Assembly (NCBI GenBank): GCA_049966395.1
Contig: JBMFUT010000005.1
Span: forward strand, 1 to 31,065
Direction: 5' to 3'
DNA: 31,065 bases
DNA from: Candidatus Micrarchaeia archaeon
Lineage (GTDB): Archaea; Micrarchaeota; Micrarchaeia; Micrarchaeales; CABMGC01
Below, piece after piece: positions 3,729 through 22,908 of the stretch (the first letter of the stretch is position 1; the number at the start of each line of letters is the position of its first letter). Below the pieces are notes generated by a model. The model was not told where the DNA came from, did no database searches, and worked only from the letters and a program-made list of their open reading frames with translations. Position numbers and translations under genes: made by a program.

Positions 3729-6122
3729 TTAGAAAAGCAGCTGGTCGAGCGCATTTGTGCTCACTAGCTTTATGTAACTGTAGCTTATTCCTATCTTCAG
3801 CATCTCCGCCTCTTCGCCATATGAAGAGTAGAGCTTCTCTAGGAAACTTTGCTTCGTCTCCTCATCTATGAAAACTATGAATGTCTTTATACCATTCACC
3901 AGGCGTATGCTCCTCATTCCGGATATGCTTGAGTATATTATAACGTGCGCCTGAACCCCGCTTTTGCTTATCACCGCGTCGGCTATGTCGCTGCTGTCCA
4001 TTTCTGTGAAAAGTATTGCGTGGGATATGCAGTAGTCGCGAAGCTTCCTAAATACCGCCAGGTATTCTATGTCGTGCTTTGAGCTTTCTATGAATTTCTT
4101 AGGCGCATAGTACCCGCCAGCCGTTTCCACTTCGCCCTGTGCAATAAGGTTGCTCATTATGAGGTTTGCATTTTGCAATGTAACGGCAATGGGCATGCCA
4201 TTGTACCTTATGTTGGAATCTATGCCGTTCTTTACTTCCTCTATCGACAAAGGCATGTTGCGCCAATGGTAATAGTAGTTTACCTTGTCGAATATGGCAA
4301 GGATGTCGTTCTTCCCCACGCTTACTGTTGATTTTTTCTGCGGCGGAAAGTCCGGGACGTCTATGTAGTATTCGTCCCTGTTCGGAGACTTGAGTATGAG
4401 GTTAAGCGCTATTACAACAATGCCTACTATTGCGAATTCTATGTAGAATGCAGGTATGTGGAAGACTTTTTTAATGTAGCTAGTAGAGTAAGAAAAACTT
4501 AGTCGGCTCATGTTTATTGTAAATACCTGGTTGCCGTAGTTGATTATTGCGCCTTTAGGAAGCGAATAGTATAGGTCTCCTCCGTAGAGCGTACCGCTTT
4601 GCTTATATGCACCGTTGAGGGTTATTGAATAGGTTGTGTTTGTAACCGGCGCGCCGTTGCTGTAAACAGAGAATATGAAGGTTCCGTTTGCAAAATTCAG
4701 CGCGACTGGCTTGACTTCTGGTGGCAGCACCTGGAAAACTGCACTGGAATAGTAGCGATTGTAGAAATCCCTAAGCAGCAGTATGTAGCGGCCTTCCGGA
4801 AGGTTGAAGGCGTAGTACTTAATCACGTTTATGTTTGAACTCGTGTTGAAAAATCCGATTGGTATTGACTCTATGTAGCTCATGTTGTCTGTGAAAAGGT
4901 CGAGATGCGGCACGACCAGGTGCTTTGATGAGGATGCTGTGCTCATGCCTATTGTCATTGCTGTCTGCTCTGCGAAGCCCAAAATGCTGGGCACGCTTAA
5001 TGTACCGTTAGCTGAATATTTGATCGAAAAAGGAATATTGTAGTAGTTAGTGAATGTGCTGTTTTGCGCCACTATAGACACCAGTGGGTAAGACATGTTT
5101 ATCTGCTGCTCTGAAATCTGCGAATTAGGCATTGTCTGGTTAAGCGTGAATATGCCAACATTACCGTTTGTAACGTTGGAAATGTTTTCGTATCCGAACG
5201 CCAAGCTAGGATTCCACACTTGAGAGTATATGACTTTTGCTATGTCGTGGGCAAGAGAAACTGGATTGCCCCAGCTTGCAGGCGTGCTTGGAAGCGCTAC
5301 AAGGGTGCCGTTGAAACGCGGTGGTACTCGATTGGCATATTTGTTGACATAGGTAAGCGGCCCATACATTGTACCGTTTATAAACTTGAAATTTGGAGAA
5401 GATATGCTTATGTTGAGCGGATTCGCCTTCTTGAGCTTAACGCTGCTGAAAGGCATGGTGCCGAGTCCGTACAAGTATAACTGGCTTAGTGTCTGCGGCG
5501 GATTCACAAATATGACGCCATTAGGACCTACTAGCCTGGAGAAATTTTCTCCTATGTAAACTATGGTGTCGCCTTCGTTTAGGAGGGTTTCTATTGGCAG
5601 CGTGCTGTTTGAAGACTGCATTAGCTGCGTTGGCATTAGCCCCGTAGCTATTATGACCATCGAGCCAGGAATTATGCTGCTGATGTTTTGTATGCCTATC
5701 ATCTGTATTCCGCTGAAAGAGCTGTTAAGCATATCGTAATAATAGATCTCGTTTGAGACATTGTCATACAGGCTCTGGGTCCCAAGGCATTGGTAGCACT
5801 CGCCGGTAGAGTTTAGAAAATAGATTTTTGGCATTGGATTGAACACGTACATTTTCAGACTGAAATTAGCTGATATTACGTTTTCGGTGGTGTAATTTAC
5901 AAGCGCGTAGCCAACAAGCTGCTGGCTGTTGTTGTAGGAAAGCACACCTTCTGAATTTACATACGCTGATATCGACATGGGTCCTGTGAACTTCGGAGCC
6001 GGTGTCTTTGGGATGTGGCTTATTACGCTTGAGACATAAAGGTAAAGAGAAAAGATGAGCAGTGCAATAACCGCTACTGCAAACAGTATAATGTATAGCA
6101 GTTTTCTGTTAGATTTGGCCAT
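3729..6122 (-). CDS. 797-aa membrane protein: N-terminal anchor, large sequon-rich extracellular region, second TM, cytoplasmic C-terminal domain
   Basis: Long ORF with hydrophobic segments at ~aa 8-30 and ~aa 558-578. N-x-S/T sequons are confined to the region between them. Last gene of the minus-strand cluster. Confidence 0.8.
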   Translation of the reverse strand: MAKSNRKLLYIILFAVAVIALLIFSLYLYVSSVISHIPKTPAPKFTGPMSISAYVNSEGVLSYNNSQQLVGYALVNYTTENVISANFSLKMYVFNPMPKIYFLNSTGECYQCLGTQSLYDNVSNEIYYYDMLNSSFSGIQMIGIQNISSIIPGSMVIIATGLMPTQLMQSSNSTLPIETLLNEGDTIVYIGENFSRLVGPNGVIFVNPPQTLSQLYLYGLGTMPFSSVKLKKANPLNISISSPNFKFINGTMYGPLTYVNKYANRVPPRFNGTLVALPSTPASWGNPVSLAHDIAKVIYSQVWNPSLAFGYENISNVTNGNVGIFTLNQTMPNSQISEQQINMSYPLVSIVAQNSTFTNYYNIPFSIKYSANGTLSVPSILGFAEQTAMTIGMSTASSSKHLVVPHLDLFTDNMSYIESIPIGFFNTSSNINVIKYYAFNLPEGRYILLLRDFYNRYYSSAVFQVLPPEVKPVALNFANGTFIFSVYSNGAPVTNTTYSITLNGAYKQSGTLYGGDLYYSLPKGAIINYGNQVFTINMSRLSFSYSTSYIKKVFHIPAFYIEFAIVGIVVIALNLILKSPNRDEYYIDVPDFPPQKKSTVSVGKNDILAIFDKVNYYYHWRNMPLSIEEVKNGIDSNIRYNGMPIAVTLQNANLIMSNLIAQGEVETAGGYYAPKKFIESSKHDIEYLAVFRKLRDYCISHAILFTEMDSSDIADAVISKSGVQAHVIIYSSISGMRSIRLVNGIKTFIVFIDEETKQSFLEKLYSSYGEEAEMLKIGISYSYIKLVSTNALDQLLF

Positions 6123-6136
6123 GTAACCATTTGCAC

Positions 6137-6289
6137 TTATATCTCTGACTTCTTCTCATTCAAAAATATCCTGTCTACCAATTTTTGGAACCATATTGAG
6201 AGCTTGTTGGTGTTCTCATTCACCCTTTTTACCACTCGGTAAACCTTTATGTTTTGGGTCCTCTTGTTTATGGTTGCGTAATATTTCAT
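6137..6289 (-). CDS. Small basic protein, 50 aa (MKYYATINKRTQNIKVYRVVKRVNENTNKLSIWFQKLVDRIFLNEKKSEI)
   Basis: Read manually. The ATG-to-TAA frame fills the gap between two same-strand genes, leaving 7-nt and 14-nt spacers. Confidence 0.6.
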   Translation of the reverse strand: MKYYATINKRTQNIKVYRVVKRVNENTNKLSIWFQKLVDRIFLNEKKSEI

Positions 6290-6296
6290 TGAAACA

Positions 6297-7019
6297 CTAG
6301 CTTTTCAATTCCAAATATCCCTGCGACACCATTTTGTTCAATATTTGCTCCACTCTCGGCGAAGGTATCTTGTAAGTCTTTGCAAATTCGTCTATGTCTA
6401 TGGTGCTGTTGTGGGCTATTATCCAGTCTTCGACCATTGCCATCAGCGATTCGTCTGAGAACGTCTGGAGGACTTTCAGTTCCTCCGAAAGCTTACTGTT
6501 TTCGTCCTTGAGCTGGGCAGCTTCTATGGTAAGGTTCCTGTTTGACGCTATAAGCTCGAGATTCTGCCTTTTGAGCTCCCTGTATTCGCTTACAAGCGCG
6601 TCGTACCTGTTGAAAAGCACGCTATAACTCTGCGAGAGGCTGTTGAGCACATCTTCTATTGCTGAATCGATGTACTGGAAGAACTTTGTTTCGTCCACAT
6701 GGAAATTCTCATTTATCATTGAAAGTATGGCTGCAACGTTCTTTATTACTGTCAGCTTCCTGAGTTTCTCGCTCGTGTCTGGCGCTATGGAGTATGTTAC
6801 TGTCATGCCCTCTTCCTTTATGGCCAGAATATAGAACAGGAATGGCTTTTTGTTTATGTCCCTGCTTTCTATCTTTGTCACTAGAAGCTCGTTGTTTTCA
6901 ATTTTGGCTGAGAAGAAAGGGGAATTGCTTATCTTAGACAGTATGTCTTCCAGCTTGCCAGTGATAGAGCCTGTTATTGCAAACTCTTCCACCTTAATAG
7001 AAGGGGTTTCCTCAGCCAT
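6297..7019 (-). CDS. 240-aa soluble protein with central coiled coil and C-terminal winged-helix-like domain
   Basis: Heptad stretch 'YDALVSEYRELKRQNLELIASNRNLTIEAAQLKDENSKLSEELKVL', followed by 'IDIDEFAKTYKIPSPRVEQILNKMVSQGYLE'. Confidence 0.8.
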   Translation of the reverse strand: MAEETPSIKVEEFAITGSITGKLEDILSKISNSPFFSAKIENNELLVTKIESRDINKKPFLFYILAIKEEGMTVTYSIAPDTSEKLRKLTVIKNVAAILSMINENFHVDETKFFQYIDSAIEDVLNSLSQSYSVLFNRYDALVSEYRELKRQNLELIASNRNLTIEAAQLKDENSKLSEELKVLQTFSDESLMAMVEDWIIAHNSTIDIDEFAKTYKIPSPRVEQILNKMVSQGYLELKS

Positions 7020-7037
7020 AGTATCAGATCAGTTGAC

Positions 7038-7052: not shown

Positions 7053-7063
7053 CGCCAATGTTT

Positions 7064-7498
7064 TTATTTTATTGCTTTATCATTTGCTGCCTGGCTTTGT
7101 TTGGAATGCACTCGGCCTTTTGTTTCTTTTGGCGGAATGGCAAGATGCTGACCGAGCTTGATTTTGGGGATATAGCTCAACAGCGAGAGAAGATAGAGGA
7201 AAACAGCAACTATTACCGTCACAATGAAAGTTCCGATTCTTGGGGATATTACCGTTCCAGTGATTATGAAAAGTATTCCAAGTATTATGTATATTTTTTC
7301 CCTTTTCTCGAATCTCTTCCTGAGGATCTTGTACTTCGGGTAGCAGTCCTTGCATACTACTATCCTGTTGCGCTGCTCGTTCTTAGTGACGTTTCTTTTG
7401 AACCATCTTATCGCATCTATGACATAGTCGCTTTCTATTTCTATGCCATCCTTTTCCTGGCCGCAGATTATGCAGTAGCTCTTAGTTTTGTCAGCCAT
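7064..7498 (-). CDS. 144-aa membrane protein with N-terminal CxxC...CxxC zinc finger and two TM helices
   Basis: CIIC and CKDC pairs, then two hydrophobic helices and a basic tail. Co-oriented with the cluster. Confidence 0.75.
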   Translation of the reverse strand: MADKTKSYCIICGQEKDGIEIESDYVIDAIRWFKRNVTKNEQRNRIVVCKDCYPKYKILRKRFEKREKIYIILGILFIITGTVISPRIGTFIVTVIVAVFLYLLSLLSYIPKIKLGQHLAIPPKETKGRVHSKQSQAANDKAIK

Positions 7499-7508: not shown

Positions 7509-7805
7509 TCACGTTACGTTCACTTCGACGACCCTGCCATAAGAAGCATTTATCCTCTCTTCGTCGAGGGCATTGAGTATCTTTGTTATTGTAACATCAT
7601 CTATTCCGAGGCGCCTGAGGACGTTTTTGACGCTTTCCTGGCCTAAGCCGTATTTCTGCAGCATTCCAGCAAATGTCACTGCGTCAACGTGCCTATGCAT
7701 CTTGTTTATAGAAGCCTCAAGGGTGTCTATGTTCTTGTCGCTCATGCCGAGCATCGTCAGCATTTTCTTCAAGTCAAGCCTGTTTACTATAAATGTTTCT
7801 CCCAT
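7509..7805 (-). CDS. 98-aa protein paralogous to the C-terminal domain of the adjacent ATPase
   Basis: GGTG RBS upstream. Manual ungapped alignment to the ATPase C-terminus gives 23/74 identities. Confidence 0.8.
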   Translation of the reverse strand: MGETFIVNRLDLKKMLTMLGMSDKNIDTLEASINKMHRHVDAVTFAGMLQKYGLGQESVKNVLRRLGIDDVTITKILNALDEERINASYGRVVEVNVT

Positions 7806-7813: not shown

Positions 7814-9319
7814 CTATGAGACAAAGTTGAAGGCACGCGTTATTATTGCGTCCTCGAAGCCTATGTTCCTTAGCACTGAAACAACGCGGTCTCTTTCCAT
7901 TCCCTCGTTGAGCAGAAGCTGCATGAACGTCCTTATGTCCACAAACCTGCTCTTCTCATCAAGTTCTGCAAATATTCTTTCTATTGAGCTGGTGCTTACG
8001 TTGCTTTCCACAAGCTTATTCTGCAGGTCTATTTTTTCGTAATAGAACTCTTTCTGCATATCTGCATTTTCGGCCTCGCTTTGCGTCAGTATGTCCCCTA
8101 TTGATATGGTATATACGTCTAATGGAACCTCTCCTACAACCCTTTCTATCAGGAAGACCTCTGGAAACTGCACAGACGTTTGGAAAGACATGTCTATTGC
8201 AGCCTGGCCGACGCCGAACTTTCCTATTTCCCTTCTCATGAAATCAGAAAAGTTCAGTGAGCCTTGCAAGTAGTTCAGGAATTTCTCGAACTTCACCCTG
8301 AGCATTATAGTAGTACCTACGTTTGAAAATATTGCTTCGTTTATGTCCGTAGGGTTTTGGGATGCGACTATAAGGCCGAACTGGTACTTTCTGCCTTCCC
8401 TTACTATCATCACGGCGTCGCTCCTCTCGTCGCTTGCGACCTTCCATGCTTCGTCCAATACGACTATTGCCTTAAGACCTTTTGATGCGCTCCACCCTTC
8501 AAGCCTCATTTTCTCCTTCAGTGATTGGAGTATGAAAAGCGCGGCAAGCGCCCTGAATGTTTCGTCCGGAAGACCTGAAAGGTCTATGTCGACAAGCCCT
8601 GATGAGACAAGCTTGCCCAAGTCCAGGGTGCTCTTCCTTGCGAAATAGTCTTCGCCTTCCCTTGCAAACTGCCTGAGCCTGTATACGGCATTCTCAAGCT
8701 CTGCGGGGTATTCGTAGCTTCCTTCCTGAAGCTTTTCCTCCAGCAGTGATATGACGTTCTTCAATGTCGGCGGCTCTTTTGAAGGGTCAGGTACCTCGGC
8801 AGAATTGAAGCCCATGTTGACGTATGCCTGCTCTATCGCTTCCTCTGTAAGCCTCTTTTGCTCAGGGTATTCGCTGATGTCTGTTAGTATTTCCAGCGAC
8901 CTAATTATCTGCTTCGTCCTGTCTATAGGCTTCATGCCAGAGAGATCCATTATGTTGAGGTAGTCGCCCTTTGCCAGAGATATGACAATGCCACCGCTTT
9001 GCTTGACCCACGCTTTGTATTCTCCTGCCCAGTCTATTATTACCGCGTTTGTGTTCCATATGTAGCTCGCTCTTGCAAGGAATGTCTTTACAAAGAAGCT
9101 CTTTCCTGCCCCTGTAATTCCCACTACTGCTATGTGAGGGTTTGTCAAGTTTGAAAAAGTCCATGTGAAAGGCACGTTGAATATCTTTGTAAGGCCTATG
9201 AAAATAGAGTTTGTAGGGTCGTTCAGTAGGTATTCCTGCGGAGGCTCCGGCGGCCTGCTGAAAAATACCCTCTTAGCAAGCTCGTTACTCATTATGTTTT
9301 GCAGCTTTACCTGGGTCAC
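7814..9319 (-). CDS. VirB4/CedB-like (FtsK-HerA superfamily) ATPase
   Basis: Walker A 'NPHIAVVGITGAGKS', 'IIDWAGEY', Walker B 'IVVLDEAW', arginine finger 'REGRKY' and sensor 'ASQNP'. No N-terminal HAS barrel. GTG start at 9319, with a possible alternative ATG nine codons later. Confidence 0.9.
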   Translation of the reverse strand: MTQVKLQNIMSNELAKRVFFSRPPEPPQEYLLNDPTNSIFIGLTKIFNVPFTWTFSNLTNPHIAVVGITGAGKSFFVKTFLARASYIWNTNAVIIDWAGEYKAWVKQSGGIVISLAKGDYLNIMDLSGMKPIDRTKQIIRSLEILTDISEYPEQKRLTEEAIEQAYVNMGFNSAEVPDPSKEPPTLKNVISLLEEKLQEGSYEYPAELENAVYRLRQFAREGEDYFARKSTLDLGKLVSSGLVDIDLSGLPDETFRALAALFILQSLKEKMRLEGWSASKGLKAIVVLDEAWKVASDERSDAVMIVREGRKYQFGLIVASQNPTDINEAIFSNVGTTIMLRVKFEKFLNYLQGSLNFSDFMRREIGKFGVGQAAIDMSFQTSVQFPEVFLIERVVGEVPLDVYTISIGDILTQSEAENADMQKEFYYEKIDLQNKLVESNVSTSSIERIFAELDEKSRFVDIRTFMQLLLNEGMERDRVVSVLRNIGFEDAIITRAFNFVS

Positions 9320-9336: not shown

Positions 9337-10164
9337 TTATTTCTGCTTGTGGAACAGCTTCATTATGTCTGACTGGAGCGTCGGAAGGGCGAAGTTGAAC
9401 TTGAACAGGTAGTACAGCTCGCGGCCTACTATTCTCATCATGCTTATGTCCATCGAATTGAATATTGTCTGCAGCTGGTTTATTTGGTTTTCTAGGCTGT
9501 CTGCAGCGGCCTTCTCACTCACCCCCGCTGCGGTGGTTTCTATATACATTATGCTCCAAAGAGGCCTTTCGCCTGATGAAATTCTGTCTATCCTCGCCTG
9601 CAGGACGTTTATCTTTCTCTGGAAATCATCTATTGCCATCTGGCTTGGATTCGGACCGCTCATTTCCTTTGAGAGCTGCTGCTCCAGAAAGCCCCGCTGC
9701 CCTTCTAGCTCTTCCCTGTATTCCTGTATGTCTTGCGCAAAAGTTATCAGGTTGAACTTGAATGGAAAATGCGTATTCATCACTATTCTTTCCCAGTTCT
9801 CCGGAGCCTGAGAGAGCTGGCTCTCTTCGTCCTCGCCGACCCTCTCAGCAGCGAAAACATACTTGTATATGTTCGCAGTTATGAAGCCAGTTGCGTAGTA
9901 TATCCCATTGACGTTCTTCACGACGTATTTCTGATTTTTCGGTATGGAATAGCCCTTTGCAGGCATTATTGAAGTCTTGGTTATTATGGTGACAAGCGGG
10001 AAGAGCAGAAAGTCAACATACTCAAGAGATACTATCATTCCGAATGCCAAAAGAGCCAGTATTAGAACAACCAGTTTGAAAGGGCCATATGATCCTATTA
10101 CAAAAAGCAGCAGCAGGACTATCATGCCCGCAATTGCCATGTACAATATTTCTTCCTGTTCCAT
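9337..10164 (-). CDS. Two-TM-anchored protein resembling a VirB3/PrgI + VirB4 N-terminal region (paralog B)
   Basis: Two N-terminal TM helices, then an alpha/beta domain with a helical hairpin insert. Immediately upstream of the ATPase and paralogous to 10164-11000. The ORF is solid; the family call is tentative. Confidence 0.6.
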   Translation of the reverse strand: MEQEEILYMAIAGMIVLLLLFVIGSYGPFKLVVLILALLAFGMIVSLEYVDFLLFPLVTIITKTSIMPAKGYSIPKNQKYVVKNVNGIYYATGFITANIYKYVFAAERVGEDEESQLSQAPENWERIVMNTHFPFKFNLITFAQDIQEYREELEGQRGFLEQQLSKEMSGPNPSQMAIDDFQRKINVLQARIDRISSGERPLWSIMYIETTAAGVSEKAAADSLENQINQLQTIFNSMDISMMRIVGRELYYLFKFNFALPTLQSDIMKLFHKQK

Positions 10165-11000
10165 TACAATCCCTCAGCCGCCGTTTTTGCCCTTATCTGC
10201 TCACTAAGGGTAGAGTATGGTATTGCTTGTTCAGGTTCTATGAACAGCAGTATTTCTGCGCCTTCTGCTATTGAAGCAGTAACTCCGAACGTTGCGCTTA
10301 TTCCTGCTACTATTTCGTCCGCTTGCTGCAGGGCAAGGTTTGAAGCTTCCTCGTCTGTTCCCCCAAGCGCCGTAATCATCGCGAAAGAGATCAGTGAGTA
10401 AGATTGAGACCTGCTTACGTTGTCAAGCAGGTTGTGCCACATTGTCACTTCTCCCTTTGTCCTGTTTATATCGCTTTGGCTTGCGCCTGAATTAGAATTA
10501 ATGCTCTGGTATCTGTCTTCCGCTTGGCTTAGCTTGTCCCTTATCTTTTCTATGTAGCTCTCCTTGCTCACTATGTACATCTGCGACGATATCTTTATAG
10601 GGGACTTGCTCAGCGTTATTACCCTGCTGAACATCCTTGCAAAATCAACCTTCTCGTCTGTACCCATTTCTGTAGTAGATTTGTATATTGGTATTTTTAT
10701 AAATGCGCTAGCGTATACTGATCCTCCTTCCCTCACTATTATCGTGTTCCCTGATGGAGAAAGAATATAAGGCTCAGCATTATTTAGTATTGCCATGCCT
10801 TTCTTCCTGTGCATGAACGGGATGAAAAAGTACCAGTAAAACCTTGAGGAAAATGCAAGTATGTCGCACAGCATGGCGACGATTACAAGCACAAGCTTGA
10901 GCGCATAGTTTGGCAATACTACTGAGAAGAGAATTAGCACTAAGCTGGCCCCGTAAAAAGATACGAACAATATCTTCTGAAAATCAAATGCCAAAACCAT
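10164..11000 (-). CDS. Two-TM-anchored protein resembling a VirB3/PrgI + VirB4 N-terminal region (paralog A)
   Basis: Same architecture as the neighbor. ATG 11000 follows AGGTTG, and the stop overlaps the next start (TAATG). Confidence 0.6.
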   Translation of the reverse strand: MVLAFDFQKILFVSFYGASLVLILFSVVLPNYALKLVLVIVAMLCDILAFSSRFYWYFFIPFMHRKKGMAILNNAEPYILSPSGNTIIVREGGSVYASAFIKIPIYKSTTEMGTDEKVDFARMFSRVITLSKSPIKISSQMYIVSKESYIEKIRDKLSQAEDRYQSINSNSGASQSDINRTKGEVTMWHNLLDNVSRSQSYSLISFAMITALGGTDEEASNLALQQADEIVAGISATFGVTASIAEGAEILLFIEPEQAIPYSTLSEQIRAKTAAEGL

Positions 11001-11136
11001 CAACCTGCTTGCATTTGGCAGCGCATTTCATGTCTCTCTGGCCGCATTCAACGCACGGCATGACGCTGCGCAGCTTTGCAATGCTTATTGCTCTGTTAAG
11101 ATTTATATTCTTTGAGCAACAGCAAGCTAGATTCCG

Positions 11137-12301
11137 CTAGAGTAGCCCAACTTTCGCTGTCTTGTGCGCGAATCCTCCTATGAACTCTGCTATAGTGATT
11201 ACCGCCATGTAGGTTGCTGCGGTTATTAAAGCAGGATAAAAAAGCACAGAAAGCCAGAAAGCGCCCATCGATGACTGGATGTTGCCAAGCGTTTCCACTA
11301 GAGGGCTTGTTGGCGAAACTGCATTTGCCTGCGAATTCGCGCCGCCGCCATATGCGTTTATGGCTGCGGTCTCCTGGTTAAGCGAGCTAAGCACAGTGGT
11401 GTTTGTGAAGAAGTACGCAATTGAAAATAGAAGTGGCATTATCAGGTAGAACCCTATCGATATGGCGATAAGCATGCCTCCCAAAGCCCTTGTTGGCAGC
11501 AGTGCCCTGAATATTATTCCTGGTATTAGAAATACTGGTATTGAAGCGTACATGAAGAACAGGATAAGGTAGAATTCTATGTGGAGCACTAGCAGCCCCT
11601 GCACAAGCACTGCGCCTATTGCCTGAGCTGGGAGCACATACAGTATCAATATCGCCTGCGAAAACACTCCAGTTATAAGGGATGCGTACACCACTGACGA
11701 TATGTCTATTCCGAAGCTGGCGTAGAAAGATGCGGCCATGTTGGTATTGAACAGCGCGGTAAAAAGATTTTCAGCAGAGGATATCGTGTTGTTTATGTAT
11801 ACTAGAGAGGTATTGTAAGGGTCTATTGGGCCTACCACGAACCCGGGTATGAGCCCCATCATTACTGCCGCTATTAACATGAACATTATCACTATTATTG
11901 CGGTCGCAAGAGCCTCGTATATTTCTCCAATTCCGTAAGTCCTGACCTTTTCGCTGTTTAGTATCAAGCCAGACATGAATATCAGGACACCTATGAAGAA
12001 AGAAACCAGTATTGCCAGTGTCGCTATTGGAATCCATGGGTGCCATGCGTTGTAGACTGCCTGATTTATCTGGCTGCAGTACCATGGCGCTAAGTTGTTC
12101 ACAATTGGCGGNNNNNNNNNNNNNNNNNNNNNNNNNNNNNNNNNNNNNNNNNNNNNNNNNNNNNNNNNNNNNNNNNNNNNNNNNNNNNNNNNNNNNNNNN
12201 NNNNNNNNNNNTTGGCGTGCATTTAGAACGCCGAATATCAATGCAAATACAAATGTTGCCAAAATGATGCGCAACGCAAATTCAAATTTTTTCCCTGTCA
12301 T
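11137..12301 (-). CDS. CedA/VirB6-like multi-pass membrane protein, paralog 6 (spans an assembly gap)
   Basis: The signal peptide MTGKKFEFALRIILATFVF (ATG 12301, ATGA overlap) is joined across the 100-N gap to the 11137 frame. Motif 'PGIIFRALLPTRALGGMLIAISIGFYLIMP'. Confidence 0.7.
12112..12211. other. Assembly gap (100 N)
   Basis: Run of exactly 100 N. Confidence 1.
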
Positions 12302-15871: not shown

Positions 15872-17071
15872 CTAACCCCAGAATGAACCTCCAGCGACGA
15901 AATTCATGCCCGAATTTAAGGCCTTGGCGAGACCTATCGAAAACGCCACCGTTATTGCAACTGCTATCGCCACCAGGAATATGCCTTCAAACATATATTC
16001 GCCGACTTGGCTTGCAATTGTAACCATAGCGCCTGGGGCGTTGAAAGGATTTATGTACTCAGAAAATGCGGAGGAGAAAAACGAAACTGGCAATGTAAAA
16101 TCTAGGGGACCTGCGTCTATGTTTGTAGATCGTGATGTGAATATAGAGCTAAGCGGCAGTTTTGCTATGTTGTATGATATGTATTGAGAATATGGGTTGC
16201 AAGGGCTTACGCCGAATGTGCAGAATGTCCACCCCATTGCGTAAGAGTTGAACATTAGCATTATTGGGAATACGAAATAGAAGCCTACCGAAAGGGCGAG
16301 GAAAGAATTTGCGGCCTCCCTGAGCTTTGGACCGGCAAAAGAGAGAGACCTCATTATTAGGGCGACAGGAAGCACGACAGTAAGGGCTATCGCAGATATG
16401 AATGGCAGCATTAGATATATGAAGAAAAGCAACCCGAAGGTTACCACTACAAGCGCTGAAAGCACATCGGTAAGCATGAGTGAGTAGCTATCGTATATTG
16501 ATCCGAGATCAGGGCTCGGCCCCAGGCTTACTTCGATATTTTCCGATTCGAATATCGGGGTAAATATTCCATCTGCCGCATTAGGGTCGCCAACGACAGG
16601 ATAGGGCAAAATCGAGCCTACTAAGCCGAGCGTGTGTATTACCTCAGCGGCGATGAAAAATCCTATGGCGGCGGAGTAGATGTTGGTCATTAAGCCAACG
16701 CCCTTGTTGAAAAGCAAATTCCCTACGTAAAACTGGTCGTACTGGAATATCTGGCCATTGTACGTCTGCCCGAATTCTGAGGTTGATATCGGCCCCGCTA
16801 TAGATTGGCTCAGGCTGCAAGAGAGCTGGGCAGAGCCGACAAGTATCACTATTATGAACGTGCTTATCATGCCCTGGAAGAATTCGAACCTTACAACGCC
16901 CCTTGCCTTCTCCCTTGTCCTTGTAGGGAAGAGGTTGCTTAAGGCGTAGAAGAATGCCGCTATTGACAGGCTGGCTATTATGACAATTATATTTATGTTT
17001 ATCCAGTTGTTCTGGTTTATGCCACCATACGTGCATCCAGGCAAAGTTTGCATCAGCAGCGTCTCAAGCAT
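15872..17071 (-). CDS. CedA/VirB6-like membrane protein, paralog 2
   Basis: Divergent motif 'VALIMRSLSFAGPKLREAANSFLALSVGFYFVFP'. Confidence 0.68.
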   Translation of the reverse strand: MLETLLMQTLPGCTYGGINQNNWININIIVIIASLSIAAFFYALSNLFPTRTREKARGVVRFEFFQGMISTFIIVILVGSAQLSCSLSQSIAGPISTSEFGQTYNGQIFQYDQFYVGNLLFNKGVGLMTNIYSAAIGFFIAAEVIHTLGLVGSILPYPVVGDPNAADGIFTPIFESENIEVSLGPSPDLGSIYDSYSLMLTDVLSALVVVTFGLLFFIYLMLPFISAIALTVVLPVALIMRSLSFAGPKLREAANSFLALSVGFYFVFPIMLMFNSYAMGWTFCTFGVSPCNPYSQYISYNIAKLPLSSIFTSRSTNIDAGPLDFTLPVSFFSSAFSEYINPFNAPGAMVTIASQVGEYMFEGIFLVAIAVAITVAFSIGLAKALNSGMNFVAGGSFWG

Positions 17072-17079: not shown

Positions 17080-18360
17080 CTATATGAGTTTCATCCTACC
17101 GCCAAGCTGCAATCTTATTGTCCCGCCGAGCATCTTGGCAATTGCATCGGTGGCGGGGTACACTATCATAAGATCAAGCACAAAAAGAATGATTTGAGAA
17201 AGTGAAAACAGAAGGTAGTAGTTTATGCCGTTCATCACACCATACAAATTGTCGTAAAAAAAGCTGCTCAAACCGTCAGATACGCCGGCAATTCCTGCCG
17301 CAACTCCACTAAACCAACTTGAAACGGTGTTGACAATCCCGACTAAGAGTTGTTCGAGGAGGTTAGACCCTGAATAGCTAAGGGATGTCTGAGAGTAGAC
17401 AGGCAGGCTGCTCAGGAGCATTGACGAAATAGGATAGTTGAAAAATAGCAGCACCGAAGGATATAATATGCCTACTCCTATCCCTATTGCGATAAGCGTC
17501 CCCCCTATGCCCCTCAAGAAAGGAAGGGCGCGCAAGATAAGACCTATTGGAATTAGCACTACCAGCACCACTTCTATCAAATATGGAAGCATGTATATCT
17601 GTGCGTAGATTATGAGCGTAGCTGGCGCCGCGATGAACTCCATGGCGTCGTTGAGTGCAGATTCATATTGCACAGATAGCACTGTTGAATCAAGCATTGG
17701 ATTTGTGTAAGGTACTGCAATAAAGCCGAACTGCAGCGTGACCACCGGCGTTGGAGGTATCAATGGCACGGGTATGTACAAGCCTACCTTTGTGGTCCTC
17801 AGGGCGCCAAGGCCAGCAGCAAGCCCTGTCAGGTAGTCGTTTCCTTCTTCTATGTTGCAAACCACTTGGCCGCAAAGATAGTTGTTCATCACTCCGTTTA
17901 CCAGGGTGCCTACGTTGTTGTAATATGCACCGGATGAGGTGGACTGACCTGATTGCAGGCCATAAAGCGCCACCATTACGCCGCTTATTAGAGTCATAAT
18001 TGCGAATATCCCTGCAATAAGCATTGTTGTTTTTCCTATCTCCCAGTATTCGCTCCTGAGCCATCCCTGCACTCCTATAGACGGGATCAATTTGCTTATG
18101 AAGTATCCTATGGCAACCACAAGAAATGATATTGTCAATGCGAGTAGAGAAAGGGATATGGCTGCTGTAGTTATGTTGAAGCTCACGTTGCCCTGGTAAG
18201 ACGTGCATTGAGAAGGCACAGTTATTCCAGGGAGTTGAGAGCAACTAGACACAAGAGAAACAGAACCTGAACTTCCCGAACCTGCATAATTAATTTTAGT
18301 GCCGAAGGCAAGCAAAAGCAGCACTACAAGCATCGCAAGCCCTAGTTTGGCACCGGTCAT
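17080..18360 (-). CDS. CedA/VirB6-like membrane protein, paralog 1 (first gene of the operon)
   Basis: Signal peptide. Motif 'IGLILRALPFLRGIGGTLIAIGIGVGILYP' and C-terminal 'IAKMLGG'. Confidence 0.72.
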   Translation of the reverse strand: MTGAKLGLAMLVVLLLLAFGTKINYAGSGSSGSVSLVSSCSQLPGITVPSQCTSYQGNVSFNITTAAISLSLLALTISFLVVAIGYFISKLIPSIGVQGWLRSEYWEIGKTTMLIAGIFAIMTLISGVMVALYGLQSGQSTSSGAYYNNVGTLVNGVMNNYLCGQVVCNIEEGNDYLTGLAAGLGALRTTKVGLYIPVPLIPPTPVVTLQFGFIAVPYTNPMLDSTVLSVQYESALNDAMEFIAAPATLIIYAQIYMLPYLIEVVLVVLIPIGLILRALPFLRGIGGTLIAIGIGVGILYPSVLLFFNYPISSMLLSSLPVYSQTSLSYSGSNLLEQLLVGIVNTVSSWFSGVAAGIAGVSDGLSSFFYDNLYGVMNGINYYLLFSLSQIILFVLDLMIVYPATDAIAKMLGGTIRLQLGGRMKLI

Positions 18361-18410: not shown

Positions 18411-19142
18411 TCAGTGTGACAGCAAAGGGAATTTTCTCATGTATGCTTCAGCTTGGAATATGACGAAATAAGGAAGCACTACGATTGAATTTATAACAAG
18501 CATTAGATACTCTGAAGCCAAGGTGCCTGTGATGTGCACAAGAAGGTAGTCTAATATGGAAACCACCATGACTGCGAGCAGAAGCCATATGACAAAATAC
18601 TGCGGCGCACGCGCCATCAGGCGCATGTTGTCCTTGAAAGCCCTGCCTATGCGCTTGTCTTCTACTACTATCGCGCTTGGCACGTAGAATATGAATATGA
18701 ATCCGAAAAATCCGACAATAGAAGTAATGGCGGCCTCCGCGCCAGCATAGTAGCCTATGAAGTTTGCTATAATCAGTGCAAGTGCGTAAACTAATAGCAC
18801 TACGAAAACCTTGCTTATGTAGCGTTCTATGCCCTTGAGCACCGATGAAGGAGTCTTCTTGTAGGTCTTCTTCGCCTTTACTATTAGGCTTATGGCGACA
18901 AAAGCGAAGCTTATGAAAAGCAGCGAAACGAAAAGAGATATTACTATCACTGCCAAAGAGACGGCGCTCATGTTCATTGATATGCTCGCACTCCTCAGGA
19001 ATATTGCGCCCGCGCTCAGGTAAGTCGGCAGAGGCGCGAACATAGGTATGAGGAAAGCTATTGCGAATGGTATTGAGAACAGAAGCACGAAACGTATGTT
19101 CTCAGCATAAGTCGAAAAAGACTCGCTGACTATGTTTGCCAT
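18411..19142 (-). CDS. 243-aa multi-pass membrane protein (YciC/UPF0259-like architecture)
   Basis: About six hydrophobic helices, with 'FYVPSAIVVEDKRIGRAFKDNMRLM' resembling that group. Confidence 0.65.
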   Translation of the reverse strand: MANIVSESFSTYAENIRFVLLFSIPFAIAFLIPMFAPLPTYLSAGAIFLRSASISMNMSAVSLAVIVISLFVSLLFISFAFVAISLIVKAKKTYKKTPSSVLKGIERYISKVFVVLLVYALALIIANFIGYYAGAEAAITSIVGFFGFIFIFYVPSAIVVEDKRIGRAFKDNMRLMARAPQYFVIWLLLAVMVVSILDYLLVHITGTLASEYLMLVINSIVVLPYFVIFQAEAYMRKFPLLSH

Positions 19143-19178: not shown

Positions 19179-20603
19179 TTAGCATGATTTGCGCGGCTCC
19201 ATTACAATCCATCCGTATTTTGAATAGCTTTGCTCATAATGCGCGATAGTTGCATTTATGATTCTAGGATATGCCAAAAACCTGTCATAGCCTTCCGGAA
19301 AAACTATCGCTCCGAAGCTGCAGTTGTCCACGCTGCTGACTATTCTAGAATCGTTCCACATTCCATGAGCCTGAAGCACCCAGAAAACGCTGGGTTCGAA
19401 GAGTATTGGCTTACCTGCAGCCACATAAACCTCAGGATCCTCTGCGAGGATAGGTCCGCTCACGTTCCTTAGCATGAAGCCTATTTTGTCCGCTGATGGC
19501 ACAGTGCCGTTGTATATATAAAGCGTTTTGTAGTATGCTGAATTGAAAGCAAGCAGAAGCAGGAACATTGCCACTGTGTAAGACATTGCCACCCTTGGGT
19601 TAAGCATTTGGGTGCCTTTTGCCTTGCTATGTGATATTTCACTTGCGCCGAGTGCGGCGGCAATGCCTAAGAACGCAAGAAAAGGAGTAAAATAGACTAT
19701 TGTAGCGCCGTATTTGGCGCTGCTCAATGTTGAAATGCCAGTAACCACAAGCAGCACGCTTATCAAAGAGTTCCTCTTTTTGAAAAGGAAAAACCACCCT
19801 AGTGCAAGAAGAGCGAAAGCGGCTGAATACGTTGATTTTATGAAATCGAAAAGGTTCAGCAGGAAAATTTTAAAAAGGGCAGGGGTGATAAGTGGCAGCT
19901 CAATCACTTCCAAGATGAAGCGCCCCCCTGTCAGAGCGTTTATTGAAAATACAGCGACTGCAGAAGAAACCAAAAAAATGGCCGAAAAGCCGAGCGCAAG
20001 TTTGAAGCGGCGCTCAATAAGCAAATATATGAGCAATGCGGCGAATATCACAATGGCGCTCTGCCTGAACATGAAGGCGATGAAAAGGGAGACAGCTGCG
20101 TATGCTACCTTTTTGCCTCCAGGCTTGATCATGAGGTATACTGCAAGTAGATCGAAAGCAAGCTCTAAAAAAATTGGACTGAAAGAGGTTCCGTATTGCA
20201 GCAAGAGCGTTGAAGACAAGAAGAATGCCGTTGCAAGCGCCGCATACTTCTTGCTAGACAAATTGTTAGTTATGGCAAATATTAGAACAGAAACAGCTGC
20301 TACTGCGAAAATATCCAAAATTTTCATATAGAAGTAAGGATTTGTCGAGACGAACTGCGGCGCAAGCATAGCAAAAGCCCTGACAAGAAGATATGAAAGA
20401 GGAGTGTAGTAAGTAAGTATGTAAGGATATGTGCTGATGCTTTTGTAAAGGATCCCAGATGTAGCTAGTATCAAAGGGTCGCTGTAATTCAATCCGTAAT
20501 TCCAAAATATGGATCTGAATAGCAGCAGCAAGTTGAAAAATGACTGCGCTATTAGAATTACGGTTATTGAGCTAATTGCCATGCTTGTTTTGCCCTTCAA
20601 CAA
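19179..20603 (-). CDS. GT-C membrane glycosyltransferase (ArnT/PMT-like)
   Basis: Multi-TM protein with a 'YSDP' loop after TM1, 'YYTPLSYLL', 'AFMFRQS' and an extracellular C-terminal domain. GGTGAT RBS with a TTG start (exact start uncertain). Confidence 0.7.
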   Translation of the reverse strand: MLKGKTSMAISSITVILIAQSFFNLLLLFRSIFWNYGLNYSDPLILATSGILYKSISTYPYILTYYTPLSYLLVRAFAMLAPQFVSTNPYFYMKILDIFAVAAVSVLIFAITNNLSSKKYAALATAFFLSSTLLLQYGTSFSPIFLELAFDLLAVYLMIKPGGKKVAYAAVSLFIAFMFRQSAIVIFAALLIYLLIERRFKLALGFSAIFLVSSAVAVFSINALTGGRFILEVIELPLITPALFKIFLLNLFDFIKSTYSAAFALLALGWFFLFKKRNSLISVLLVVTGISTLSSAKYGATIVYFTPFLAFLGIAAALGASEISHSKAKGTQMLNPRVAMSYTVAMFLLLLAFNSAYYKTLYIYNGTVPSADKIGFMLRNVSGPILAEDPEVYVAAGKPILFEPSVFWVLQAHGMWNDSRIVSSVDNCSFGAIVFPEGYDRFLAYPRIINATIAHYEQSYSKYGWIVMEPRKSC

Positions 20604-20611
20604 ATCACCTA

Positions 20612-22495
20612 CTAGCTTGCAGCTGTCATGTTTGCATTGTAGAAGTAGTCCCCGCTGTAGATTATTGCGTCGGCAACATCTATCCTATATGCCTTCTTGG
20701 TATAGTTGCCACTAGCCTTTGGCCAATTGATAGTAGCATTAAGGGCGTATTCGTGAACGCCTGCCTGAAGCGTTATCTTATTTACGTTCAGGAGGCACCG
20801 GTAGTCATTTGTGCTGCAGCGTTGAGGCTGTTTTATCAGACTTGAATTTCCAAAACCTGATATGTATATCGTGTTGTTGGCGTATGTGTAGAAAAACAGG
20901 TACGCCGTGGTATTTGAATTTCCCATGTAGTGTATTTCGGCAGAATAGCGGCTCTCGTTTGACTGTGGGATCGAAATCAGGCTCTGGTTGCTTATTGATA
21001 CCCCGAAATCGCTCTTGTATAAATTATGAGATGCCAGTATTGCATAAAACCCTGCAACCACTAGTAGCAATGCAACTGCTGCCACAGCAAGCCTGTGCCT
21101 CTGCAGAAAAACTTTGCGCCTAGGCGCGGCACCTTCTTTCATGAAAAGCACTATCACCGCAAAGGCTATGAAAAAAGTGAAGTATGAGCCGAGCGCATGT
21201 GGAAACATCAGTGGCACCATGCTGAATATTGGAACTAATTTTTTCTCGTTTAAGAATGCGAAAAGAAGCACCATCAAGAGCGCAGATATAGCAAACATTG
21301 TCGTGAGGGAAGGAATTGTAACATTGTAGAGCTGCAGCAGCGGGTATCCGAATAGCGAGGATGGCAAAGGCAGCAGCAGTTTTCCTATGGGGGAGAACAC
21401 GTCACGGAAATATGCCGTCGGGCTCGAGGCTATGAAATAGCCGTTTATCAATGCAAACACGAATATGGCGCCAAGCAGGTCGTATGCGCCGCGCCTGATG
21501 CCTTTGTTTGTGAAAGAGTATGTTATGAGTAACAGCACTGGGAGCCACAGCTCTTCCTGTATAGAAGCCGCAATGCCAAGCATTAGCCACGAATACTTGC
21601 TATCTATAGAGGCATATGCTATAAGTATCAGCGCAAGCATGAGGAATGTCTGCGTTGAGGACACTATCGCAATGGCAAAAAGCAGAAATATTATCACGCT
21701 ATATCTTGGCCTGGCTATGTGCTTCTTGTCAAGAAGCAGCGCTATTGTAAGCAGGAGTATGAAAATAAATACGCCGGCTTGAATGCTCATTTCGGTAGAA
21801 AGATTTTTCATTGTGGGTGGGAGAAGCAAATAGAAAGGCAGAAAAGATAGCATGTAAAGCGCAGGGTAGTTTATTGTGCCTATTATGTCGTTGTTTGTGG
21901 TCGGAGTATAGCTCATGTTAAGCATGTTATCGTAGACCTGCTGCGAGAAAGAAATCGCATATGGATTTGTGCCGTTTAGGAATGCCTTTGTGCTTAGGAA
22001 GCATATGTAGGCCTCGTCGTCAGGAAAGAAGTGGAAGGCGTATTCAGCAAAATAGTACAGCGATATTATCAATATAGCTGCAAAAATCAATATCAGCGCA
22101 ACTTTTGTGTACTCCTTGCCCGCTCTCAAAAGGTAAGCCCCGAACATCATGCAGAAGAGTAGTGGAAGAAACAGTATTATGTACTTACCCAGCAAAGTTC
22201 CGAGCGTAACTAATGATAGTACTTCGCCTGACCTTACAACAGGCAACATTAAAATAGGCAATAAGAAGAAAAAAACCAAAACCGATAGAGCCACAATCAT
22301 TGGCATGTCGTACTTCTTTGATGCACGGTCTTTCTGGTTTTCAAACATTCTCATTGACGCTATCGCAATAAACGAGATAGCTATAGGTATGCCACTTAAT
22401 GAAGGGATATAAGAAAGGTTACCGCACTGCGCCCCAATGAACATGATAAATAAGAAGGCTGACACGAAGAAGATGCTATCGTGGCTAAGTTGCAT
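20612..22495 (-). CDS. GT-C membrane glycosyltransferase (GT87/DUF2029-like)
   Basis: 'FPDDEAY...FLNGTNPY...NYPALY' motif series, many TM helices and a sequon-rich C-terminal domain. Confidence 0.7.
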   Translation of the reverse strand: MQLSHDSIFFVSAFLFIMFIGAQCGNLSYIPSLSGIPIAISFIAIASMRMFENQKDRASKKYDMPMIVALSVLVFFFLLPILMLPVVRSGEVLSLVTLGTLLGKYIILFLPLLFCMMFGAYLLRAGKEYTKVALILIFAAILIISLYYFAEYAFHFFPDDEAYICFLSTKAFLNGTNPYAISFSQQVYDNMLNMSYTPTTNNDIIGTINYPALYMLSFLPFYLLLPPTMKNLSTEMSIQAGVFIFILLLTIALLLDKKHIARPRYSVIIFLLFAIAIVSSTQTFLMLALILIAYASIDSKYSWLMLGIAASIQEELWLPVLLLITYSFTNKGIRRGAYDLLGAIFVFALINGYFIASSPTAYFRDVFSPIGKLLLPLPSSLFGYPLLQLYNVTIPSLTTMFAISALLMVLLFAFLNEKKLVPIFSMVPLMFPHALGSYFTFFIAFAVIVLFMKEGAAPRRKVFLQRHRLAVAAVALLLVVAGFYAILASHNLYKSDFGVSISNQSLISIPQSNESRYSAEIHYMGNSNTTAYLFFYTYANNTIYISGFGNSSLIKQPQRCSTNDYRCLLNVNKITLQAGVHEYALNATINWPKASGNYTKKAYRIDVADAIIYSGDYFYNANMTAAS

Positions 22496-22520
22496 GATGA
22501 TAATTAAGAGGAATACAAAA

Positions 22521-22559
22521 TAAAAAGGTTAGTTTGCCGCCACACATACGGCGGCAAAC
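22521..22559 (-). terminator. Hairpin + T-tract downstream of the pilin gene
   Basis: Perfect 10-bp stem gtttgccgcc (22532-22541) / ggcggcaaac (22550-22559) with an 8-nt loop. On the minus strand it is followed by taacctttttatttt. Confidence 0.65.
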
Positions 22560-22584
22560 GAAATTTTTCGGCTTACCCGTAGCT

Positions 22585-22908
22585 TCATATTCCTTGTATT
22601 AAGCCTACGAGGTAAGGGGCAATCAATACTAGGATCAATCCCACTATTGAACCTATGATCATACCCATTGCCCAGCCCTGCATGTTTGCCTTTATCTGTC
22701 CTGCTGCAGGCAGGAAATGCGCTGCGGCGTAGAGGACGCCTCCTACCATGAAGAGTGCTATGGCGAACACGCCGATTACAGTCTGCACTATTGATACTAT
22801 GCTCTGGAATACAGAACTGAGCAACGATGCCGCTTGAGCAAACGCTAGAGAACTTATCTGTGACACTAAAAGCAGTGAAACCAGCAGTTTCAGATAATTT
22901 ATTTTCAT
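22585..22908 (-). CDS. VirB2/TrbC/CedA1-like pilin
   Basis: 107 aa: signal peptide ending AFA-Q, an amphipathic helix, then two hydrophobic helices joined by a short loop ('HFLPAAGQIKANMQGW'), ending 'IAPYLVGLI'. GGTG RBS. Confidence 0.75.
   Translation of the reverse strand: MKINYLKLLVSLLLVSQISSLAFAQAASLLSSVFQSIVSIVQTVIGVFAIALFMVGGVLYAAAHFLPAAGQIKANMQGWAMGMIIGSIVGLILVLIAPYLVGLIQGI

Follow-up and report, generated by a model that had tools for sequence, protein, structure and literature searches.

The VirB4-family ATPase is the one protein that is ubiquitous among type IV secretion systems (T4SS). In Archaea, Ced (CedA, CedA1, CedA2, CedB, CedD, CedE) and Ted are described relatives of these systems. 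Ced imports DNA and is induced by UV or DNA damage. Ced of Sulfolobales has a paralogous channel (CedA/CedE) and a paralogous motor (CedB/CedD), and parts of the VirB4 N-terminal domain (N-domain) are divided between CedB and CedD (PMC11868833; Beltran et al., PMC9905601). Ted of Thermoproteales (TedA, TedB, TedC) is described as chromosomal, with a pilin cut by signal peptidase I, a VirB6/CedA-like protein and a VirB4-like ATPase (PMC9905601). Among bacteria, nearly all Patescibacteria carry a T4SS, mostly without a relaxase and with pilins of VirB2-like type, for which co-option for host interaction has been proposed (PMC12102498). Here we describe a gene cluster of a Candidatus Micrarchaeia archaeon (assembly GCA_049966395.1, contig JBMFUT010000005.1, positions 1 to 31,065; this whole stretch of 31,065 nucleotides is referred to below as the window). 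It encodes homologues of the pilin, channel and motor of T4SS and Ced, with the VirB4 counterpart split, and is very likely a domesticated, vertically inherited descendant of T4SS/Ced-Ted machinery and not a mobile element.

The cluster comprises 17 co-oriented genes on the minus strand, running from 22908 down to 3729 with intergenic gaps of -4 to 174 bp. Like Ced, it is chromosomal and relaxase-free and combines a VirB2-like pilin, a VirB6-like polytopic protein and a VirB4-like ATPase; as is described for Ced, channel and motor paralogs are duplicated and the VirB4 N-domain is divided between proteins. Unlike Ced, it has six fixed channel paralogs instead of two, and its VirB4 N-domain forms two free proteins with two transmembrane (TM) helices each, whereas that of Ced is fused to the ATPases. 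Moreover, its pilin has a cleavable signal peptide, whereas Ced pilins appear unprocessed (PMC9905601), and four or five further conserved parts lack an equivalent in Ced. Measured against the Ced equivalogs (CedA, CedA1, CedB; NF041796, NF041017), the ATPase reached 67 bits for CedB, where the cut-off is 700, and 68.5 bits for CedD, where it is 600; the cluster is a relative of Ced, not a member. With Ted, compared by description only, it shares the chromosomal location, the signal-peptidase pilin and the VirB6/CedA-like and VirB4-like proteins, but Ted has one channel gene and an unsplit ATPase, and the HerA, ParA and Rad50 genes reported as frequent in Ted loci (PMC9905601) were not found here with Pfam. 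The Patescibacteria T4SS is likewise chromosomal and near-universal and belongs to an ultra-small epibiotic lineage, but is bacterial, of the MPF-FATA type and has a full-length VirB4; the analysis describing it included 12 archaeal VirB4-like proteins from Ced, Ted and plasmids (PMC12102498). No published description of the present cluster was found in open-access full text, subscription journals and supplements lying outside this scope, and the secretion section of the Mia14 genome paper confines itself to type IV pili, Sec and Tat (PMC5498576).

Pilin, channel and motor are homologous to T4SS/Ced parts and VirB4 is split

The ATPase carries Walker A at residue 67 (GITGAGKS) and Walker B at residue 285 (IVVLDE), and a Walker A motif so close to the N-terminus leaves no room for a large N-domain or a HAS barrel. 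Its NCBIfam scores, all below the cut-offs, were 68.5 bits for CedD, 67.0 for CedB, 61.3 for VirB4-like CD1110, 55.1 for TraC and 53.3 for HerA. The VirB4 structure 4ag5 aligns with residues 57-335, whereas HerA-family entries of the PDB align mainly with residues 232-392. Among plasmid records, 1365 match the ATPase, mostly under traC, and 844 of these are typed conjugative. A phmmer search against 1.84 billion representative sequences yielded 1909 matches at E <= 1e-3. The nearest unsplit relatives have 689-913 amino acids (aa; E 1e-49 to 1e-29), the match starting only at their residue 270-310, and these fused relatives cover the CedB profile almost end to end (94-144 bits). Looking up their protein clusters returned no names. 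Furthermore, the best NCBIfam label in 31 ATPase relatives was CedB for 21, CedD for two, VirB4-like for six and HerA for one, with one left unlabelled. The orthologues of the ATPase (n=41) share 108 invariant columns.

The part that the ATPase lacks was found next to it. Two adjoining genes encode the 2-TM proteins 2TMa and 2TMb, which are paralogs of each other (BLASTP E 0.001; cross-hits of their profile hidden Markov models (HMMs) 1e-17 to 1e-62). Their HMMs match, in colinear fashion, the N-terminal ~250 residues of seven fused relatives (E 6.5e-9 to 3.5e-4), the best value belonging to 2TMb against the fused CedB-like N-termini. The AlphaFold2 model of 2TMa (predicted local distance difference test score (pLDDT) 85.2) returned TrwK/VirB4 in the top seven rows of a Foldseek search (probability 0.97-1.00, E 0.018-0.06). 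In VIA-align, residues 70-275 were superposed on TrwK 221-384 with Z 10.7 and a root-mean-square deviation (rmsd) of 3.3 Å over 151 residues, and the other rows of similar Z covered a 55-residue hairpin only. On the strength of the HMM matches to fused relatives and of the TrwK superposition, 2TMa and 2TMb each correspond to the second half of the VirB4 N-domain, encoded separately and anchored in the membrane.

The nearest unsplit motor relatives come from loci of two Nitrosopumilales/Thaumarchaeota metagenome-assembled genomes (L067, L068), in each of which a CedA-like gene of 290 aa lies directly upstream of a CedB-like ATPase gene of 861-913 aa. The N-terminus of this ATPase matches the Micrarchaeota 2-TM family, and the thaumarchaeal CedA-like protein matches the channel-like family of the cluster (M family, below). 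Unlike the cluster, the thaumarchaeal loci have one channel gene, a fused N-domain, a long C-terminal extension in place of the short C-terminal domain, and they lack all Micrarchaeota accessory genes. Among 251 Micrarchaeota genomes, no protein of the fused CedB-like type turned up at E <= 1e-60. A search of the two thaumarchaeal genomes for a bona fide HerA outgroup was negative. In both loci (L067:8178-12577 and L068:8927-12727) the CedB-like ATPase has two to three N-terminal TM helices and a C-terminal extension of ~250 aa. The thaumarchaeal loci suggest that Ced-type systems extend beyond Sulfolobales and Thermoproteales.

Upstream of the motor, six consecutive genes encode multipass proteins, M1 to M6 in gene order, of which 13 of the 15 possible pairs matched in BLASTP at E <= 1 (5.9e-7 to 0.17). 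Common to them is the motif R..(P/F).TR..GG..(I/L)A....G....(Y/F)P, and R216, R222 and P240 (numbering of the 12298-13353 protein, M5) are invariant in an alignment of 54 sequences from all six groups. In a FastTree phylogeny of 83 sequences, array positions 2, 3, 5 and 6 were each monophyletic over 13 genomes, and positions 1 and 4 only among same-order genomes (10 genomes). These position-wise clades indicate that the six copies are old and not interchangeable. M6 is the best-conserved paralog, with 41-50% identity to its orthologues in L010, L011, L013 and L014.

Homology of the M proteins to CedA-like and VirB6 proteins is supported by profile and structure comparison. The CedA-like polytopic genes of the two thaumarchaeal loci are recognised by NCBIfam CedA (3.5e-19 and 3e-13) and CedE (1.3e-13), and hhalign aligned the M-family profile with the CedA-like profile at 91.5% and E 8.5e-7, an alignment of 252 columns in which the signature motifs coincide. 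The AlphaFold2 model of M5 (pLDDT 85.4, predicted template modelling score 0.79) gave TrwI/VirB6 chains in all of the best five Foldseek rows against the PDB (E 0.12-0.24). VIA-align likewise placed TrwI chains on top (Z 9.6, with rmsd 6.5 Å over 239/261 residues, then 9.2 and 9.1), followed by a designed repeat protein (8.1) and BAR domains (6.9). An independent search of 48,161 representative chains ranked TrwI first (Z 8.6, 244/261 residues), as the sole chain at Z >= 8. The M proteins found nothing in NCBIfam CedA/CedE at E <= 0.1, PHROGs gave nothing for the membrane proteins of the window, and a set of 5.8 billion proteins returned for the M family only unnamed or hypothetical proteins of Micrarchaeota type. 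In the ESM Atlas, M5 met only clusters of Archaea ('Microcaldota'); one cluster (score 0.90) carries PF27251 CedA1 on 23% of its members, which we take as a lead only.

A tandem expansion of VirB6 paralogs in reduced-genome, host-dependent cells is also described for the rvh T4SS of Rickettsiales (PMC2653234, PMC7648143). That system, however, is bacterial, diderm and effector-secreting, with huge extensions on its VirB6 paralogs, and its expansion is independent of the six-paralog array.

The pilin gene lies at the upstream end of the cluster. The window pilin matched Pfam T4SS_pilin (PF18895) at 4.7e-5 and 23.8 bits, just under the cut-off of 26.6. In the pilin family assembled from relatives PF18895 was found in 23 of 34 members and PF04956 (TrbC/VirB2) in 17. 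The best PDB match of the family profile was TrwL, the VirB2 of plasmid R388 (8s6h, E 0.0026); the single window sequence found nothing in the PDB. In relatives, the pilin gene adjoins the membrane array on its upstream side, and the operon begins with one to three such genes. In addition, the pilin profile aligns weakly with the first helix of the M family (53%, E 1.4e-4), and the same kind of relation has been reported between CedA1 and CedA and between VirB2 and VirB6 (Beltran et al., PMC9905601). Most pilin homologues, in an alignment that drew on loci L010-L058, have a cysteine near the mature start and a near-invariant C-terminal cysteine, and the window copy has neither. The two cysteines could link the ends of the pilin, recalling the cyclised TrbC/VirB2 pilins.

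The cluster therefore holds the parts by which a T4SS is recognised in the broad sense: a VirB2/TrbC-type pilin, a VirB6-like polytopic protein, whose structural Z is moderate for a helical protein, and a VirB4-family ATPase, whose scores lie below curated cut-offs. The best PDB matches, TrwL/VirB2 for the pilin, TrwI/VirB6 for M5 and the TrwK/VirB4 N-domain for 2TMa, all fall in the Trw T4SS of R388, the parts of which include TrwL/VirB2, TrwM/VirB3, TrwK/VirB4 and TrwI/VirB6. Unlike bacterial T4SS, the cluster is without an outer-membrane core, and VirB5, VirB8, VirB10, VirB11, VirD4 and a relaxase were not recognised in it; it is also chromosomal and vertically inherited, with a split VirB4 and six VirB6 paralogs.

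Inheritance of the cluster and a second module

Of 251 genomes sampled across the phylum, 221 have a match to the ATPase (E <= 1e-40) and 224 a match to the M family (E <= 1e-10). Both follow the same family-level pattern, with none in families f10, f15, f17, f18, f20, f22, f26 and f29 and a presence in two of 11 genomes of f11. These tallies include two unpublished genomes (G038, G210), omission of which alters no conclusion. In a set of 41 relatives an ATPase match was present in every genome, and a full-strength orthologue with 63-80% identity in 40, the exception being an 84% complete genome (G008). In the same 40 relatives the identity of topoisomerase VI-B was 54-68%, so that the motor is more conserved than this housekeeping enzyme. 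The ATPase orthologues lie on contigs of up to 853 kb, and the cluster adjoins topoisomerase VI-B here and in several relatives.

Gene order is preserved as well. Among 53 loci, 26 have the common order pilin(s), 6-TM gene, M1-M6, 2TMb, 2TMa, ATPase, (98-aa gene), zinc-ribbon gene, coiled-coil gene and ~800-aa gene. The other 27 have the motor half only, with the membrane array not adjacent; in five such genomes that were searched the six-gene array was found elsewhere in all five, those from the three more distant families having two arrays.

The source assembly has 0.69 Mb in 34 contigs and is 89% complete. Searches of this genome for PF02534 (VirD4), PF03432 (relaxase) and PF00589 (integrase) found none, whereas the control genomes were positive. 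The tyrosine recombinase PF00589 went undetected in the whole assembly, although the family occurs in 14 of 14 control genomes and a XerA-type resolvase would be expected.

The cluster is inherited vertically; it belongs specifically to Micrarchaeota, most of which have it, and does not constitute a mobile element. This is the picture that the preliminary description of the window had put forward, namely a much-elaborated Ced/T4SS relative rather than a conjugative element, and the homologies of pilin, channel and motor together with the phylum-wide distribution bear it out. The description had also set out what would speak against it: membrane paralogs without VirB6/CedA kinship, an ATPase grouping with repair HerA, or a patchy cluster linked to a relaxase or integrase. 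Instead, the paralogs align with CedA-like proteins and have TrwI/VirB6 on top in two structural searches, the ATPase relatives carry a CedB, CedD or VirB4-like best label in 29 of 31 cases, and the cluster is neither patchy nor accompanied by a PF03432 relaxase, VirD4 or PF00589 integrase hit in the genome. The conduit for host contact or uptake that the description proposed is a candidate function.

The same genome contains a second, minimal paralogous module on another contig (contig C2, L066:4474-8868), in which a pilin, a single M-like protein, a 2TM-like protein and an ATPase occur together. It is followed by genes of 223 and 171 aa and one for a 762-aa P-loop protein, and a 574-aa CedD/HerA-like ATPase is encoded 5.8 kb further along. 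That the same four types of part occur together again strengthens the case for their joint function.

Accessory genes and genomic setting

The interval 3729-18360 holds 13 genes: six for multipass proteins, two for 2-TM proteins, one for the ATPase and four accessory genes (Table 1). The preliminary description had seen 14 co-oriented genes here, five of them accessory. The co-orientation stands, all of the open reading frames (ORFs) that it described being present on the minus strand, and the count has to be corrected, the fifth accessory gene being the 6-TM gene just outside the interval. BLASTP hits, the shared motif and HMM cross-hits agree with its six multipass and two 2-TM paralogs. The pilin-like gene that it had noted on the same strand does lie upstream, at a distance of 4.2 kb. 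It had further placed the block among housekeeping genes of a probable DPANN archaeon, and both points fit: the flanks encode archaeal families recognised by Pfam (topoisomerase VI-B at 2053-3726 on the plus strand, a KH protein, RpoF/Rpb4, DUF655, L21e, TBP, an eRF1-like protein and KsgA), and the closest named homologues of the ATPase are from Candidatus Micrarchaeota, Micrarchaeia or Micrarchaeaceae.

Table 1. Genes of the cluster, in order of transcription, and genes of the second module (L066), with the features that characterise them
Gene or product	Coordinates	Strand	Remarks
Pilin precursor, VirB2/TrbC type	22585..22908	-	107 aa; signal peptide ending in AFA, followed by Q; two hydrophobic helices; K-containing loop
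Polytopic membrane protein, probably accessory or insertion	20612..22495	-	627 aa; ~11 TM; no family hit
Polytopic membrane protein, weakly GT-C glycosyltransferase-like	19179..20603	-	474 aa; Pfam PMT_2 0.0057, below cut-off
Conserved six-TM protein, constant member between pilin and array	18411..19142	-	243 aa; orthologues in 24/26 full-array loci
M1, CedA/VirB6-like	17080..18360	-	426 aa; position 1 forms a clade among 10 same-order genomes
M2, CedA/VirB6-like, most divergent motif	15872..17071	-	399 aa; position 2 clade, 13 genomes, support 0.98
M3, CedA/VirB6-like, larger extracellular insert	14468..15868	-	466 aa; position 3 clade, 13 genomes, support 0.96
M4, CedA/VirB6-like	13350..14465	-	371 aa; position 4 clade only within 10 same-order genomes
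M5, CedA/VirB6-like, the modelled paralog	12298..13353	-	351 aa; position 5 clade, 13 genomes, support 0.99
M6, CedA/VirB6-like	11137..12222	-	361 aa; position 6 clade, 13 genomes, support 0.84
2TMb, predicted membrane-anchored VirB4 N-domain paralog	10164..11003	-	279 aa; two TM helices and soluble domain; HMM against fused CedB-like N-termini
2TMa, predicted membrane-anchored VirB4 N-terminal domain	9337..10164	-	275 aa; two TM helices and soluble domain; model and HMM
VirB4/CedB-type P-loop ATPase	7814..9319	-	501 aa; motor domain only and ~80-aa C-terminal domain; Pfam DUF87, AAA_10, TraG P-loop
Soluble protein, free-standing ATPase C-terminal domain	7509..7805	-	98 aa; BLASTP against ATPase residues 421-498, 30.8% identity, E 4.3e-10
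Zinc-ribbon protein	7064..7498	-	144 aa; N-terminal CxxC...CxxC and TM hairpin; 53/53 loci
Cytoplasmic coiled-coil protein	6297..7019	-	240 aa; N-terminal domain, coiled coil and C-terminal winged helix; 53/53 loci
Bitopic surface protein	3729..6122	-	797 aa; TM 8-26 and 559-577; 45/53 loci
Second-module pilin	L066		126 aa; family HMM E 1.6e-10; T4SS_pilin 8.8e-5
Second-module M-like protein, single copy	L066		354 aa; HMM 4.9e-32
Second-module 2TM-like protein	L066		239 aa; HMM 3.8e-23
Second-module ATPase	L066		361 aa

Downstream of the motor, the 98-aa gene was found in 33 of 53 loci, directly behind the ATPase gene. In families without it, the tail of the ATPase itself (residues 421-498) matches the C-domain profile more strongly. 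The zinc-ribbon protein matched the zinc-finger family TIGR04104 weakly (5.5e-4). The 240-aa protein gave a Pfam PCI match (2.9e-5) and has a ZapB-like coiled coil, and the best PDB match of its family profile was the CdvB winged helix (2xvc, E 0.0029). The 797-aa protein consists of an ectodomain of ~530 aa (528) and a cytoplasmic domain of ~220 aa (219), which is its best-conserved part; its 23 NxS/T sequons are confined to the ectodomain, the cytoplasmic part having none. A profile search of the PDB gave no credible match for it (best E 0.11), and the ESM Atlas yielded no named cluster. HMMs of the 240-, 144- and 797-aa proteins found nothing in the thaumarchaeal loci, the second module or 150 ATPase representatives. 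Between pilin and array, the six-TM protein had no credible Pfam hit in any of its 24 aligned members.

The two genes for large polytopic proteins at 19179-22495 appear to have been inserted later. Homologues of the 627-aa protein, the C-terminal extracellular part of which is rich in N-glycosylation sequons (13 NxS/T), occupy the interval from pilin to 6-TM gene in L010, L023-L027, L036 and L038, whereas most relatives belonging to the order's second family lack the gene at this spot. No counterpart of the 474-aa gene was seen in 53 loci, and it is probably an insertion specific to this genome. The two proteins may glycosylate surface parts of the machine.

The GC content is even over the window (0.40-0.48), with no compositional shift. 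Two exact runs of 100 N bases interrupt the sequence, at 12112-12211 and 23038-23137. The former breaks the N-terminus of M6, the product of which is not fully readable; the latter breaks a small Ser/Thr-rich secreted ORF at 23013-23393, which is likewise not fully readable. The TBP ORF at 25691-26011 encodes only 106 aa with a single TBP repeat (PF00352, residues 16-97), the usual TBP having two. Parts of this stretch were seen in three DNA runs of one hot-spring study, and no RNA run was listed.

Proposed mechanism and alternative explanations

By analogy with T4SS and Ced, we infer an assembly in which a hexameric VirB4/CedB-type motor (7814-9319) would be tethered to the membrane by two separate copies of the VirB4 N-domain (9337-11003), each bearing a VirB3-like TM hairpin. 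The motor would sit beneath a platform or channel formed by the six non-interchangeable CedA/VirB6-like paralogs (11137-18360), and the pilin (22585-22908), once processed by signal peptidase, would be drawn from the membrane and polymerised on this platform into a pilus or tube of the conjugative type. Cell contact and control could be provided by the lineage-specific parts, namely the 797-aa surface protein, the coiled-coil/winged-helix protein, the zinc-ribbon membrane protein and the 6-TM protein. The likeliest task of such a machine would be to pass DNA, without need of a relaxase, between the symbiont and the cells around it, probably in the direction of import; DNA as cargo is a plausible but tentative reading, which we would place a little short of an even chance. 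Stoichiometry and direction of transfer are likewise proposed by analogy. A bolder version, which we consider rather unlikely, would have the six paralogs form a fixed hetero-oligomeric ring with one copy of each, matching a six-fold, three-piece VirB4 motor and extended by a VirB2-type tube to the host. The whole would then be the principal symbiosis organelle of the phylum, importing host DNA, nucleotides or lipids, and an independently evolved counterpart of the T4SS of Patescibacteria.

Several points weigh against descent from T4SS/Ced-Ted machinery and the functions proposed for it. Every match of a cluster part to a named family lies below the curated cut-off of that family. The M family had no direct hit with its profile against PDB sequences or with its members against Pfam and NCBIfam, PF04610 included, and the 2-TM family had no direct Pfam, NCBIfam or PDB sequence hit. 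The CedA-like profile used in hhalign consists of four sequences only, and the scores of M5 against VirB6 (Z 8.6-9.6, rmsd ~6 Å; Foldseek E 0.12-0.24) are of a kind that helical proteins can reach by arrangement alone. The class of the ATPase was assigned from family scores and partners, and one of the 31 relatives, P0248, is labelled best by HerA. Counterparts of VirB8, VirB1, VirD4 and the relaxase were not recognised, and the negative result for the relaxase comes from one family, PF03432, in an 89% complete genome. Finally, cargo and direction are read from analogy.

The same machine could carry something other than DNA, serving as a host-contact conduit for lipids, nucleotides, proteins or effectors, which is possible if doubtful. 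Such a role would suit the small genomes of Micrarchaeota (0.6-1.6 Mb), and the near-universality of the cluster and its conservation above that of topoisomerase VI-B fit an essential symbiosis better than occasional DNA exchange. Scans of the cluster with Pfam and NCBIfam found no recognisable DNA-processing gene, and published parallels for a non-DNA conduit are offered by the chromosomal T4SS of Patescibacteria (PMC12102498) and the VirB4-domain giant proteins of nanohaloarchaea (PMC10266531). However, Ced and Ted, given as the sole experimentally characterised archaeal relatives, move DNA (PMC9905601, PMC11868833), and no effector-like or substrate-recognition component was identified.

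An apparatus for pilus assembly and adhesion only, building a VirB2-type filament for host attachment without translocation, appears unlikely. Six conserved channel-like paralogs and a three-piece motor would be a large outlay for a filament, even if the one to three pilin genes heading the operon in relatives, the lack of a coupling protein hit (PF02534) in the genome and the adhesion suggested by a large glycosylated surface protein would agree with it. In known T4SS the VirB6/VirB4 core is used for both pilus growth and transfer, which also speaks against a machine confined to the former.

Very improbable is a HerA-type repair or defence ATPase that merely lies beside unrelated membrane proteins and has no kinship with T4SS or Ced. 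The ATPase does belong to the same P-loop superfamily as HerA-NurA and anti-phage HerA, its top Pfam hit is DUF87 ('Helicase HerA central domain') and its top PDB sequence hits are of the HerA family (e.g. 8wiv, E 5e-12), as is the best label of P0248. Within the ATPase domain, DUF87 and several HerA entries of the PDB cover the C-terminal half. Unlike HerA systems, the cluster has neither an N-domain of HAS-barrel size, Walker A standing at residue 67, nor a NurA, Sir2 or other nuclease partner; no nuclease family was found among the neighbours, and NurA, Mre11 and Rad50 were not among them (Pfam). We rejected this explanation on the VirB4-type membrane N-domain, detached here and matching that of VirB4 in fold and sequence, on the CedB, CedD or VirB4-like labels of 29 of 31 relatives and on gene neighbours as in T4SS, which encode a VirB2-like pilin and proteins resembling CedA. 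Least probable of all is an ordinary integrated conjugative element or plasmid remnant, which would account for parts homologous to conjugation genes and was rejected since it is contradicted by a distribution over 221-224 of 251 phylum genomes with motor and channel co-distributed by family, as well as by the conserved position beside topoisomerase VI-B, a GC content of 0.40-0.48 with no shift, the lack of an integrase, PF03432 relaxase or VirD4 in the genome and an ancient, fixed order of paralogs.

Understood as a domesticated descendant of T4SS/Ced-Ted machinery, the cluster is a concrete candidate for how host-dependent Micrarchaeota exchange DNA or other material with their hosts. With about 15 defined proteins and a presence in roughly nine of ten sampled Micrarchaeota genomes, it bears on how DPANN archaea with genomes below 1 Mb obtain host material. 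Domesticated conjugation machinery of the Ced/Ted type is extended from Thermoproteota to DPANN, and two new architectures are added, a VirB4 divided into a motor and two predicted membrane-anchored N-domains and a VirB6/CedA channel protein multiplied to six copies in a preserved order. Moreover, the chromosomal T4SS of the ultra-small Patescibacteria offers a parallel, which hints that episymbionts have convergently put conjugation-derived machines to use.

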